Origin: a virus
UHGV virus genome: UHGV-0200387
Reading direction: 5' to 3' (one strand)
DNA length: 26,278 nt
This document shows, piece by piece, positions 20,257 through 26,278 of this stretch. A program made the position numbers and the translations under genes. How positions within the stretch are numbered: position 1 is the first letter of the stretch; every line of letters starts with the position of its first letter. The notes beneath the pieces were generated by a model. That model was not told the DNA's origin. It did no database searches and saw only the letters and a program-made list of their open reading frames with translations.

Positions 20257-21756
20257 TTAAGTTCTCCGTGCGATGGGCCTGATTGGGGCTGGTATCTTTT
20301 TCTCTTTTGGTTTTTTGATGTCGCGCATCATTTTGGCGAAGCGGCGCATCATGTATGCATAGCGAACGGCTGAGAGAACGTCGTCGTTAAGCTTGACGAT
20401 CTTCCCGTTTTCATCACGGTGATAGAGGCGAAACTCCTCAAAGAATGGCTCACAGGTGTTGAATACTTTGAAGCGACCATCAAGCATCATGTCGCGCAAT
20501 TCAGTGATTCCAGGCTCAACAGCATTACCGCCATCAGGCCATGTCGCATGCTCCTGCAACATCATAAAACCAGCGTCCGCGTACTGCCCTTTAAGCTGCT
20601 CACCGCCGCCCTTCTCGTGCTGGTTTCCGTCATGAGGCCATGCGGTTGGCACTTTATGCGCCCAAGATTTAACGGCTCCCCACGCCTGAACGGCTGTTTT
20701 TTCTTTCGCCTTCCACACGCGTGAAACGTAGATTGTGTCTGCGTCCTTATCCCACCAAAGCTGAACCTGCGCCTGCGGGTGATCCCATCCGAAATCCATC
20801 CCGCCAATTACGTAGAAGTGATCAGGACACTCGAACGGCTGACACTTAATCGTCTCTTCCGGTATCTGGAAGATTCGCCCGCTACCCATCGTAGGAATAC
20901 CGCGAGCACGCGCCTCTCTCTCATGCTCAGGATAGGATGCGATGATTTGCTCTTTCTGCTCGTCGGTGTAGTGCTCAGCGTCATAGATGGTCATGTTGAC
21001 CACTTTCTGCGACTTGCTGGGATTCTTCAGGAACTTGGTAACAACGTCAGACATCCCCATCAGCGGGGTAAACGTCAGAATTGAGAATTGCCCGTATTTG
21101 TTGGTACGGGTAAGACCTTCGCCATAAATGCTGTATGGTGGCTCTTCGTCAAACCACACGCCGTGGATTGTGTCACCCTGCCAGCGAGCGCGGCCTTGCG
21201 AGTATGGTTTGAAGTAGCAGATTGAAATGCCATCTTCAACGCCATCAGCCGTGTGATGCTTAACCAGAAGATGATCAACAAGGTTCGGAAAGAAAGGAGA
21301 CTTCTTCCAGCTAATGATGTCTTCTTTAGGTATTGAACCGTAGCCCGGCTCATCATTCTCTTCAATACGACCGCACAGGATGCGTTGAGTCGTTTTGGTT
21401 ACAGTCTCGTTTGTCTCGCCACCAATCCAGAAGACAACAGGCTCATAAAAACGCTTACCTTTCCACTCACCGCCATATTTACCATCAGCCGGATAGCCTT
21501 TTGTTCCCGGATAACGCCCGGTAAGGTGAAACGCGACTTCAGCAGCACCAGTAAATGACTTACCAAGCTGGTTACCAGCCATAAAACAGCGCTCTGGATA
21601 GTCATGCCCGGCGTCGATGAACTCACGCTGTTTGCTGTATGGCGTAAATTCATATAGCAGGTGTGTGTTCCGGTAGTTCTCTTCTTCTTCGAGTAGCTCG
21701 AGCAACTCGATTTGCTCTTCGTCGCTCAGGTTATCAAGAATCGCGTCCAGTTCCAC
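20257..21756 (-). CDS. terminase large subunit, P22 gp2-like
   Basis: 499 aa, N-terminus [37 protein letters not shown]... as in P22 gp2. Overlaps the 3' end of the small-terminase gene. Confidence 0.92.
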
Positions 21757-22222
21757 GGTTGAATAGCTCCTTGATACGAGAGCGTCGCTTATCGCGATCT
21801 CCCTTATCAGGTGTCACGTCTTCAACTTGCGACTGCTCTTTGAGGCCCAAATCACGGGCGATGATATTAGCATTGAGAAGGTCAGCGGCTGCGCCAGAGA
21901 ATTTCTGGTCGTATATGATGTCTTCCGCTCGTGATGTGACGTCAGAAAAACCTTCCATTGACCGGAAGGTTCCCCATGTTTGCCTGGTGATATCAAGGAA
22001 GGTACACAATCCTGAAATAGTCATGGCTCGCATCTTAGGGACATTAGCCTTAATTATTTCTCCCTGATATGAAAATACCTTACCCTCCCATAGCGGGTTA
22101 TCATCAGCCCACTCGAAGTATTCACAACAAGCAGCCCACAGCGCCTCAGGCGATTCGAATTTAGGGTTTCGCCCATGACTACTGCGGGCCTCCCAAAATC
22201 GGTTGCCCTTTGGTGCTGCCAT
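21734..22222 (-). CDS. terminase small subunit, P22 gp3-like
   Basis: 162 aa from the second ATG ([38 protein letters not shown]...), C-terminus ...[24 protein letters not shown] as in P22 gp3. The central (DNA-recognition) part differs from what I recall for P22. Confidence 0.88.
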
Positions 22223-22257
22223 ATTCATCTCACTTAGTTGTTATTTCAGGTTGAGCA

Positions 22258-22500
22258 TCATGCTCCGGTAGTGAACAGGTCTAACGCTTCCTTCGATTTA
22301 CGCACCGCTTCGATAGTGCGGGTCGTGATATCTGAATTAGCGCCGCCTGACTGGAAGTGAATTTTGAATAGCTCAAGCTTCAGCTCGTCAGTACCAATGA
22401 ACTGAAATGCTTCCTCTGCGGCTGCGTTCTGGTTCATGACCAGTTTGTAAATCTCTAACTGGAATTTCTGTTCTTCAGTCATGGGAATAATCTCTGCCAT
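22258..22500 (-). CDS. small hypothetical protein (P22 orf80 position, upstream of small terminase)
   Basis: 80 aa, GGAG 6 nt upstream of the ATG, preceded by a hairpin (GGGATA/TATCCC, 22526-22548) plus T-run. Confidence 0.55.
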   Translation of the reverse strand: MAEIIPMTEEQKFQLEIYKLVMNQNAAAEEAFQFIGTDELKLELFKIHFQSGGANSDITTRTIEAVRKSKEALDLFTTGA

Positions 22501-22794
22501 TGTTGGCTCCGTTTATCCGTTAAAAGGGATATCAGTTAAGTTATCCCGTGTAGGGTATAAGCCATTGTCGAGACCACTCATTGAATGTCCTCTGCAATAA
22601 CCGATGTCTTTCCATCAGTCCGCCACCACAAAGAATCTTTTTTGCCATAAGGCAGGAGGTTCATCTTTCAGTGGCTGCCAGTGTTATTTCCCCACTTACT
22701 GGCTTGGGTTGTTTCGCTGTACTGCCGTAACTGGTTGCCAAGAATAAATTCTGGTTTCATTATCAAGCCCACCCGTAGATAGGCTTTGTAATGG

Positions 22795-23082
22795 CTACTT
22801 CTTCAGAACTGATTCGATGAATTCACGTCGGGGATGACGATAGTTCAGAATATCTTCTGGCATCCTCATAAAGCGGTTGTTGCCGTCTTTGGCAGTAACA
22901 AAACAGCTGTGAACTCCGCAGACATCCGTTTTGATTGTGTCGCTATACTCAAAAAGCAACTGAGCCATCTTCTCTTGCCATTCTGGCGGCATAGCCTCCA
23001 TGAATACTCGCGGCATCACGCAGAACGGCGCATGCGTAAGACCAAACCACAGTTGCAGGTCTTTACGATATTCTTCATCCAT
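22795..23082 (-). CDS. hypothetical 95-aa protein with 4 Cys and several His
   Basis: ATG 23082 with AAAGGTAAAG upstream. Lies between the lysis-cassette terminator and a 294-bp ORF-free spacer. No motif I can name. Confidence 0.5.
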   Translation of the reverse strand: MDEEYRKDLQLWFGLTHAPFCVMPRVFMEAMPPEWQEKMAQLLFEYSDTIKTDVCGVHSCFVTAKDGNNRFMRMPEDILNYRHPRREFIESVLKK

Positions 23083-23100
23083 CGTCTTTACCTTTGTTGC

Positions 23101-23127
23101 AATAAAAAGCCCCGCTACTGCGAGGCT
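23101..23127 (-). terminator. intrinsic terminator at the end of the lysis cassette
   Basis: On the minus strand: 8-bp stem AGCCUCGC/GCGGGGCU (one G-U pair), loop AGUA, then UUUUUAUU. The stem overlaps the last Rz codons and stop. Confidence 0.65.
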
Positions 23128-25655: not shown

Positions 25656-25715
25656 CTGCCGTTTTGAATACCGTAGAATATAATGCCCAACCAACAAATG
25701 ATTGTCTGCGGCCGA

Positions 25716-25741
25716 AATAAAAAAGCCCGAGACAAGCGGGC
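25716..25741 (-). terminator. intrinsic terminator about 235 nt downstream of tR'
   Basis: On the minus strand: GCCCG-CUUGUCU-CGGGC followed by UUUUUUAUUU. Confidence 0.7.
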
Positions 25742-25974
25742 AATATGGGGGTAAGGCAATGCCGGCTCTATGGCCGAAGGGTCCCAGGCAGTGGGTTTGT
25801 TTGTGGTGGCAGGTGCTGATCTCCTGCTCAGGGTTGTAGCAAGCCCCATGAAGCGCGCACTACTGTAGTCATGGCGCATCAGCCTGCGCATTCACCACAA
25901 CGGAAAGAGCACTGGCTAACCAGGCTCGCCGACTCTTCACGATTATCGGCTCAATGCTCTTACCTGTTGTGCAG

Positions 25975-26037
25975 ATATAAAAAATCCCGAAACCGTTATG
26001 CAGGCTCTAACTATTACCTGCGAACTGTTTCGGGATT
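25975..26037 (-). terminator. tR'-type terminator of the late leader transcript
   Basis: 11-bp stem AATCCCGAAAC (26027-26037) / GTTTCGGGATT (25983-25993) enclosing an inner GCAGG/CCTGC stem, followed on the minus strand by TTTTTTAT. Matches phage lambda tR' as I recall it. Confidence 0.8.
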
Positions 26038-26170
26038 GCATTTTACTGACCTCTCAGCCTGCGATGGTTGGAGTTCCAGACGATGCGTCGAAGTGACCAA
26101 CTAGGCGGAATCGGTAGTAAGCGCCGCCTCTTTTCATCTCACTACCACAACGAGCGAATTAACCCATCGT
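25975..26170 (-). ncRNA. lambda-type 6S late leader RNA (PR' transcript ending at tR'; contains the qut/pause region)
   Basis: About 195 nt between the inferred PR' start and tR'. The sequence AATTCGCTCGTTGTGGTAGTGAGATGAAAAGAGGCGGCGCTTACTACCGATTCCGCCTAGTTGGTCACTTCGACG.ATCGTCTGGAACTCCAACCATCGCAGGC... is near-identical to lambda as recalled. Ends are inferred by analogy. Confidence 0.7.
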
Positions 26171-26206
26171 TGAGTCAAATTTACCCAACTTTATTCAATA
26201 AGTCAA
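26171..26206 (-). promoter_or_regulatory. late promoter PR' (lambda-type) with overlapping Q-utilisation site
   Basis: On the minus strand: -35 TTGACT (complement of 26201-26206), 17-bp spacer, -10 TAAATT (complement of 26178-26183), in the context TTGACTTATTGAATAAAGTTGGGTAAATTTGACTCAACGATGGG, one mismatch from lambda PR' as recalled. Confidence 0.8.
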
Positions 26207-26208
26207 TA

Positions 26209-26278
26209 TCATGCCGTTAATATGTTGCCATCCGTGGCAATCATGCTGCTAACGTGTGACCGCATTCAAAATGTTGTC
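26209..26278 (-). CDS. Q: late antiterminator Q, lambda-type, 3' end only (5' part beyond the window)
   Basis: Minus-strand frame ending ...SHVSSMIATDGNILTA-TGA (stop at complement of 26209-26211), immediately upstream of PR'. The nucleotide sequence matches the lambda Q 3' end as recalled. Confidence 0.7.

Follow-up and report, generated by a model that had tools for sequence, protein, structure and literature searches.

A mosaic late-control and lysis region in a P22-like prophage of Escherichia coli

Positions 21734-26278 of UHGV virus genome UHGV-0200387, a stretch of 26,278 nucleotides (nt) referred to below as the window, very probably represent the late-control and lysis region of a P22-like (Lederbergvirus) prophage inserted at argW of Escherichia coli, which was built by repeated module exchange and is organized as a Q-driven late operon on the minus strand. 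The late region is a case of ordinary lambdoid mosaicism, a patchwork of well-documented modules. A preliminary description of this DNA had proposed a single recombination joint; instead, at least six joints were found in the region, and the best matches differ from block to block.

The window begins in the E. coli chromosome (mlaA, yfdC and the tRNA-Arg(CCT) gene at 3023-3097), continues with intS (3223-4416) and then enters the prophage, in which the late operon is encoded on the minus strand; the last 30 nt of the window belong to the Q gene. Comparison with lambda (NC_001416) was performed by local BLAST and base-by-base alignment, and AF217253 and NC_019501 served as the references for P22 and IME10. 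The phage search set comprised 50,697 phage records and the chromosome search set 5426 complete E. coli genomes. The closest relative among the phage records is Enterobacteria phage IME10, an E. coli Lederbergvirus; P22, like the other P22-like phages of Salmonella, is less closely related. Four further sequences are referred to below: E. coli GN05064 (L021), the IMG/VR contigs L022 and L025, and a Serratia prophage (L018).

The sequence identities, breakpoints, empty sites and gene families described here are direct observations. Block A (26278-25890) is the module common to lambda and IME10. Block B (25919-25711 together with 24550-23661) is one lysis module with its own leader; its two parts are contiguous in L025 (95.7% and 92.6% identity), where the same holin of 113 amino acids (aa) and lysozyme of 150 aa are preceded by another Q, a PF06323-like protein of 229 aa. 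Block C (25710-24551) is an insertion. Block D comprises Rz/Rz1, for which the nearest relatives differ again (about 81% to mEp237 and HK225, 89% to E. coli Sx181-0-1). Block E (23127-22736) is 99% identical to phage HF4s, and block F (22735 onwards) is the IME10/P22 packaging module.

Blocks A and B overlap in CCAGTGCTCTTTCCGTTGTGG (25919-25890, about 30 nt), a sequence that the lambda-type module has in common with the leader of the lysis module and that is also conserved in GN05064. The similarity to L023, L024 and L025 begins at 25919. Since both blocks share this sequence, 25919-25890 is identified as the recombination joint. The breakpoint had been expected near 25880, in good agreement with the positions now obtained (25890 against lambda, 25875 against IME10). 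Every breakpoint of the region falls at a predicted terminator stem or T-tract or in the short conserved linker following the terminator tR'. The late-control module and the leader that follows it consist of these elements:

26249-26278, minus strand: last 9 codons and stop codon of the gene for the antiterminator Q, 100% identical to lambda 44480-44509.
26178-26206, minus strand: late promoter PR' (-35 TTGACT, 17-nt spacer, -10 TAAATT), found by promoter scan.
25978-26171, minus strand: 6S-type late leader with the pause element AACGAT and tR', 100% identical to IME10.
25979-26037, minus strand: intrinsic terminator tR' (hairpin 26037-25984 and T6), identical to lambda.
25890-25977, minus strand: conserved linker after tR' (88 nt), at whose end, 25890, the likeness to lambda stops.
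25711-25889, minus strand: native leader of the holin-lysozyme module, 95.7% identical to L025, where it runs straight into 24550, and 93.5% to GN05064.
25741-25725 and T6, minus strand: terminator t2 in the native lysis leader, found by terminator scan.

The only match to lambda is provided by window 26278-25890 on the minus strand, which corresponds to lambda 44480-44868 with 98.2% identity over 389 nt (E = 0). There are seven mismatches (26189, 26085, 26056, 26047, 26045, 25949 and 25895), and the likeness is lost abruptly from 25889. The earlier statement that the Q 3' end, PR', the 6S leader and tR' are near-identical to lambda is therefore confirmed. The spacer of PR' holds a predicted Q-binding element, and upstream of +1 the window departs from lambda only at -18 (26189), with G in place of A. 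The same G is present in P22 and IME10, and the promoter hexamers are identical in all three phages. With this promoter the transcription start falls at 26171, corresponding to lambda 44587, the start at lambda PR'; lambda 6S RNA is 194 nt long. Positions +1 to +86 equal lambda exactly, so that the pause element, a -10-like sequence in the initial transcribed region, is unchanged. All four mismatches to lambda within the 6S leader lie upstream of the tR' hairpin, for which a folding energy of -26.9 kcal/mol (z = -5.1) is predicted. Lambdoid phages of Klebsiella and Salmonella have some 80 nt of the linker (25971-25890) with 97.5% identity, and patches of it are shared with GN05064. An Rfam scan of 22500-26278 (E <= 1) gave no RNA family over the 6S leader and only a chance sub-threshold match to Listeria rli45.

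The counterpart of lambda orf-64 (25943-26137, minus strand) is interrupted in the window at codon R28, where AGA is replaced by the stop codon TGA (26056). IME10, identical here, has this stop codon as well, and its presence argues against orf-64 being a gene. A 92-aa open reading frame (ORF) at 25613-25891 was regarded as spurious, because it has no family matches and straddles the joint.

The lambda-like control module is not foreign to P22-like phages. P22 gp23 has 95.7% identity with lambda Q along its whole length, and the Q of IME10 has 99.5%. The window and P22 agree at 91.6% of nucleotides over 26149-26278 (Q 3' end, PR' and the first approximately 20 transcribed nt) and then diverge. 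IME10 shares the Q 3' end, PR', 6S leader and tR' at 99.75% over 25875-26278, with 100% in the 6S part. The lambda-like 6S/tR' part is also present in phage Dewey (97.3%) and, partially, in E212, HK446, mEp506, phiv205-1 and Kapi1. Five of these six phages, E212 being the exception, lose the likeness at query position 172, window 25977, the exact end of the tR' T-tract. P22-like phage epsilon34 was reported to possess a Q protein 98% identical to that of lambda and an identical qut site (PMC2629481), and three non-homologous types of holin and three types of lysin were described among P22-like phages (PMC2629481). Since gp23 is a lambda-type Q and the P22 PR' has identical hexamers, a lambda-type Q is normal in a P22-like phage. 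Describing the region as a lambda/P22 hybrid, as had been done, is thus misleading: P22 itself has a lambda-type Q and PR', and the exact leader (99.75-100%) is that of IME10. The mosaic late region in itself adds little, because both lambda-type Q/qut in P22-like phages and the free swapping of lysis cassettes belong to the textbook knowledge of lambdoid phages. It is useful as a clean worked example of joint formation, in which filled and empty sites are both at hand for comparison.

The filled site is occupied by the following elements:

24551-25710, no strand assigned: inserted block of about 1.16 kb between imperfect direct repeats GGGCTTTTTTATTTC (25728-25714) and GGGCTTTCTATTTC (24550-24537).
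25521-25697, minus strand: truncated second Q, C-terminal 58 codons (PF06530, E = 5e-14, profile positions 71-118 of 118; PHROG 79).
25405-25520, minus strand: relic late leader of the truncated Q (hairpin 25507-25493, box TGGTCACTTCGACACA at 25470-25455, hairpin 25440-25412).
25169-25360, minus strand: 63-aa ORF in the direction of late transcription, with a GGAGG ribosome-binding site.
24661-25191, plus strand: DUF2441 protein of 176 aa with a predicted ADP-ribosyltransferase (ART) fold, antisense to the late operon.
24537-24565, minus strand: terminator-like hairpin and downstream repeat copy at the end of the insert, from terminator scan and empty-site alignment; the fold (-10.4 kcal/mol) is not significant against shuffled sequences.

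In the empty sites of GN05064 and L025, position 25711 is joined directly to 24550 with one repeat copy, GGGCTTTTTTATTTC. Each direct repeat (14-15 nt) corresponds to the 3' stem and T-tract of a terminator-like hairpin, and such hairpins are present on both flanks of the insert. At 98.8-99.2% identity the insert occurs in only two of the complete E. coli genomes, AREA_C483 and MLI104K1, where it is located behind yet another intact Q. A 903-bp core (25421-24519), which encodes both the DUF2441 protein and the 63-aa ORF, recurs with 90.8% identity in Salmonella prophages; its immediate neighbours there are a PF06323-type Q and a class II holin. The preliminary description had attributed the joint adjoining this cargo to module exchange; a joint does exist where predicted, but the cargo is a separate insertion in the leader of the lysis module and not a product of a lambda/P22 joint.

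The truncated Q is annotated by PGAP as a partial pseudogene in AREA_C483 and aligns with the 3' end of the Q of Stx2_EH2201. Its relic leader (about 115 nt, with a folding energy of -17.4 kcal/mol for hairpin 25440-25412) contains a block that is likewise conserved in this Stx2a phage, downstream from its intact Q. When the relic leader was aligned with Stx2_EH2201 in search of a promoter, the conserved block was evident and no conserved -10/-35 pair was found. A 16-nt box, TGGTCACTTCGAC(G/A)CA, is located at 26099-26084 (minus strand) in the lambda-type 6S leader and again at 25470-25455 (minus strand) in the relic leader; it is also kept downstream of the Q of Stx2_EH2201. The presence of this box in two leaders could be due to common ancestry of late leaders, to chance or to a functional element.

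Terminator 3' stems of the TGGGGCTT(T/G) type were observed in three copies on the minus strand (24552-24541, 25423-25412 and 25848-25837). Two copies are close to the limits (25421 and 24519) of the core that Salmonella prophages share, and the copy at 25848-25837 coincides with no mapped joint. These copies suggest that recombination may occur at terminator sequences. In GN05064, the leader of the empty site contains at about 2480-2515 a tRNA-like 3' end (GGTTCGAATCC...CCA), which is not a complete tRNA and was not called as a gene by ARAGORN. The similarity to the window begins at the last bases of this tRNA-like end, which points to another module boundary at a tRNA remnant.

Being present in some collinear phages, absent from others and provided with defined ends, the insert can be classified as a putative moron. 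The moron concept of Juhala, Hendrix and colleagues covers extra genes in lambdoid phages, including those in the position between Q/PR' and the holin where phages encoding Shiga toxin (Stx) carry the toxin genes; the cassette described here occupies that same position. As in other lambdoid morons, genes between tR' and the holin are bounded by terminators, are present or absent, and are transcribed against the operon. In contrast to these, a gene for an ART-fold DUF2441 protein with a convergent 63-aa partner and a dead Q fragment is new content for the position, and the insert has neither toxin genes of a known type nor tRNAs. The tRNA scan detected no tRNAs between Q and the holin, unlike in Stx phages, and a convincing promoter was not found ahead of the DUF2441 gene.

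In lambda, Q engages the sigma-70-paused complex at PR' and converts RNA polymerase into a terminator-resistant form; without Q, transcription stops at tR' and yields a 6S-type RNA. The Q-modified polymerase ignores intrinsic terminators over tens of kb. By analogy with this established biology, the lambda-type Q of the prophage would load on the polymerase paused just past PR' (start 26171) and make it resistant to termination. The modified polymerase would pass tR' (26037-25979) and then the terminator-like hairpins at 25741, 25507 and 25440, would cross the DUF2441 gene antisense and head-on, and would proceed into the holin, endolysin, Rz/Rz1, terminase and virion genes. Nothing in the sequence contradicts such Q-dependent read-through, which we infer from the lambda case.

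Several points weigh against a functional Q-driven operon assembled by module exchange. The exact combination (at least 80% of 21734-26278 in one place) is present in none of the 5426 complete E. coli genomes. Just 30 nt of Q lie inside the window, too little to show an intact Q (PF03589 family). Three extra terminators and a convergent gene are situated between PR' and the holin, and their read-through is assumed from lambda. Finally, the relic leader might hold a still-active promoter.

The prophage could also be cryptic, with a decaying late region in which the terminators and antisense gene of the insert block late expression. The truncated Q and the three extra hairpins between PR' and the holin could be understood in this way, as could the rarity of the combination and the splitting of the acyltransferase gene (4704-5752). 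Such decay is nevertheless improbable, since all late ORFs from the holin to the tailspike are of full length and match their P22 counterparts, and PR', the pause element and tR' are intact. In addition, Q-modified polymerase disregards intrinsic terminators, and the same insert is found in the AREA_C483 and MLI104K1 prophages with intact neighbouring genes.

A lysis cassette of mixed relationships follows the insert, and the packaging module begins behind it:

24090-24431, minus strand: holin of 113 aa, a distant member of the lambda S family (PF05106, E = 1.6e-30; TIGR01594).
23663-24115 (longest ORF), minus strand: endolysin, a GH24 lysozyme of the T4/P22 type (PF00959, E = 1e-50).
23115-23666, minus strand: Rz-type i-spanin of 183 aa (PHROG 214, E = 2e-54), about 81% identical in nucleotide sequence to mEp237 and HK225.
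23225-23422, minus strand: Rz1-type o-spanin ORF embedded in Rz (lipobox LAGC; PHROG 456).
22795-23082, minus strand: 95-aa ORF (PHROG 3527), 99% identical in nucleotide sequence to phage HF4s.
22258-22500, minus strand: DUF2560 protein (PF10834), the counterpart of P22 ORF80 with 98.75% aa identity.
21734-22228, minus strand: small terminase subunit gp3, 82% identical in aa sequence to P22 gp3, first gene of the P22-type packaging/morphogenesis module.

The functional types of lysis proteins match those of P22, namely an S-family holin, a GH24 lysozyme and a two-component spanin. The holin is 28% identical to P22 gp13 and 24% to lambda S at the aa level. The endolysin, which probably starts at GTG 24106 or ATG 24103, is 49% identical in aa sequence to P22 gp19 and 92.6% identical in nucleotide sequence to L025; it has no match to lambda R. 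For Rz/Rz1, similarity to P22 gp15 or lambda Rz could not be detected. Neither P22 nor IME10 gave a nucleotide match to 22799-25874, so that IME10 lacks both the insert and the lysis cassette of the window; in IME10, in contrast, lambda-type S, R and Rz directly follow the leader. For P22 the stretch with no nucleotide match extends over 22729-26148, including the three lysis genes and the cargo. By these comparisons, the lysis genes are not a P22-type cassette (13, 19, 15).

A terminator hairpin with a T run (approximately 23128-23100; -16.5 kcal/mol for folded 23130-23086) is located at the Rz stop, before the 95-aa ORF. This ORF aligns only to positions 139-230 of the 233-position PHROG 3527 profile and may be what is left of the C-terminal part of a longer gene that was cut at the Rz joint.

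The packaging and virion genes are arranged on the minus strand as in P22 (3-2-1-8-5-4-10-26-14-7-20-16-(mnt)-9), and all of them are present. The aa identities to P22, mostly 60-93%, are 82% for gp3, 93% for gp2, 78% for the portal, 85% for the scaffold, 73% for the coat, 60% for gp4, 93% for gp10, 65% for gp26, 92% for gp14, 83% for gp7, 60% for gp20 and 34% for gp16. The tailspike is 75% identical to that of P22 across the 114-aa head-binding domain only (PF09008). In the nucleotide alignment with P22, identity is about 78% over 11690-13317 and 13466-22255, 72% over 10622-11329 and 93-97% over 22256-22728. IME10 is 96% identical over 13453-22601, against about 78% for P22, and its intS integrase is 97% identical. 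The late operon had been described as P22-type in its whole length; this is valid for the genes from terminase to tailspike, which keep the order and, for the most part, 60-93% aa identity, but not for holin, lysozyme and Rz (28%, 49% and no similarity).

The differences from the reference phages can be listed accordingly. The likeness to lambda ends 88 nt past tR', and the S, R and Rz genes and siphovirus morphogenesis genes of lambda are absent from the window. P22 shares the gene order of the late operon, the lambda-type gp23 and PR', whereas its leader diverges from about +20, its lysis genes 13-19-15 are not those of the window and its immI region is reduced in the window to an mnt-like gene. 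From IME10 the window also differs in the receptor-binding part of the tailspike.

A two-parent hybrid, in which lambda late control was fused at one joint (about 25880) to the P22 lysis-plus-morphogenesis operon, would explain the end of lambda identity at 25890 and the synteny of the morphogenesis genes with P22. It is very unlikely, being refuted for the lysis cassette by the lack of P22 nucleotide similarity and by the protein identities given above. Furthermore, the lambda-type Q and PR' are found in P22 itself, at least six blocks have differing nearest relatives, and the morphogenesis genes are far nearer to IME10 than to P22.

Repeated module exchange probably proceeded as follows. A Q-PR'-6S-tR' module of the lambda/IME10 type would have joined a foreign lysis module within the linker of about 30 nt at 25919-25890. 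The leader of this lysis module would earlier have gained the insertion of about 1.16 kb at a terminator T-tract, and with it the dead Q fragment with its relic leader and a two-gene moron. Further joints separate holin and lysozyme, Rz/Rz1, the 95-aa ORF and the P22-type packaging genes from one another. That the joints arose by collapse of several lambdoid prophages of one genome during assembly is scarcely credible, even though multiple lambdoid prophages with short common linkers are frequent in E. coli and one joint falls in about 30 nt of shared sequence: L022, from separate data, is 100% identical to window 24168-26254, an interval that takes in the lambda joint as well as the interior and upstream edge of the insert, so the joints there are genuine rather than produced by one assembly, and individual joints are supported by AREA_C483, MLI104K1, L025 and IME10.

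The insert with the truncated Q and the DUF2441 gene is the sole part of the region deserving follow-up, as a modest lead. The DUF2441 protein matches PF10386 with 33.6 bits (cut-off 25; E = 4.7e-8), only residues 50-91 being aligned. A search with a family profile finds 655 representative clusters, and DUF2441 is placed in the ART clan of Pfam (PMC7955679). In 36 diverse members of the family, residues G33, E56, S72, R73, F78, Y136, W137 and E157 are invariant, and H10, D12, R55, E60 and D115 are nearly invariant. The catalytic triad of the ART superfamily is H-Y-E or R-S-E, and these residues are compatible with a putative H-Y-E-like catalytic set. A solved DUF2441 structure is that of BC2332 of Bacillus cereus (PDB 2aua), which differs in being a chromosomal protein of a Gram-positive bacterium. 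In the literature search, nothing was found on PF10386, and DUF2441 turned up only in lists of ART-clan families, with no paper on its function. PADLOC (E <= 0.1) and NCBIfam gave no match for either cargo protein, so that neither resembles a defence family described so far in these collections, and tblastn of the DUF2441 protein against the phage records gave none either.

The 63-aa ORF is convergent with the DUF2441 gene and overlaps its 3' end by 23 nt. It appears to be a real gene: compared with the Salmonella copy, codon changes are 6 synonymous and 2 non-synonymous, against 1/7 and 0/8 in the other frames. Identity of its product ranges from 98 to 41% in Salmonella, Erwinia, Hafnia and Serratia (52-55% in Erwinia and Hafnia, 41% in Serratia) and is weak, 30%, in Providencia. 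The pair was found in seven contexts in six genera, the small gene always with the late operon and the DUF2441 gene always against it; the overlap of the 3' ends is 23 nt in five genera (six contexts) and 18 nt in Providencia. In Hafnia and Serratia the pair separates Q from the holin, and in Providencia its neighbours are the lysis genes on one side and the small terminase gene on the other. An E217-like myovirus prophage of Erwinia tracheiphila has it among the tail genes, with those for the sheath and tube on one side. Scanning of species-representative genomes revealed one locus only, in Hafnia. In E. coli, the pair is a rare two-gene cassette (2 of 5426 complete genomes).

Tentatively, and with the predicted fold, the conservation and the gene geometry as its basis, the DUF2441 protein and its 63-aa partner could be an accessory system of prophages, as yet uncharacterised, with an ART-fold enzyme at its centre. 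The enzyme could be made in the lysogen, for example for defence or modification of the host, and late transcription on induction would silence its gene by convergent transcription and simultaneously yield a small protein inhibitor. If this is true, the pair would be a new accessory module of temperate phages. In the Serratia prophage with the DUF2441 pair, a protein of the Acb2/Tad1-hairpin family (an anti-defence sponge family) is encoded just downstream of the lysis genes (L018 2890-3171).

At the other end of the prophage, a 97-aa Arc/Mnt-type repressor gene (8160-8453, plus strand) is the sole gene between gene 16 and the tailspike gene; the immI region of P22 (the 'ant moron') is here without arc, ant and sieA. 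Beyond its head-binding domain the tailspike (5801-7730, minus strand) has no similarity to P22 or IME10, and this different receptor-binding module implies a different O-antigen specificity.

Integration at tRNA-Arg(CCT), that is argW, uses a site also occupied by the CPS-53 element of K-12. The intS gene is directed away from the tRNA, which places the integrase at the tailspike end of the prophage map, and the mlaA-yfdC flank is 98-99% identical with many E. coli genomes. The acyltransferase gene (PF01757), located between intS and the tailspike and probably O-antigen-modifying, consists of two overlapping ORFs of 230 and 138 aa, which suggests a frameshift; in strain TB06053 an 'acyltransferase family protein' is annotated at the corresponding place.

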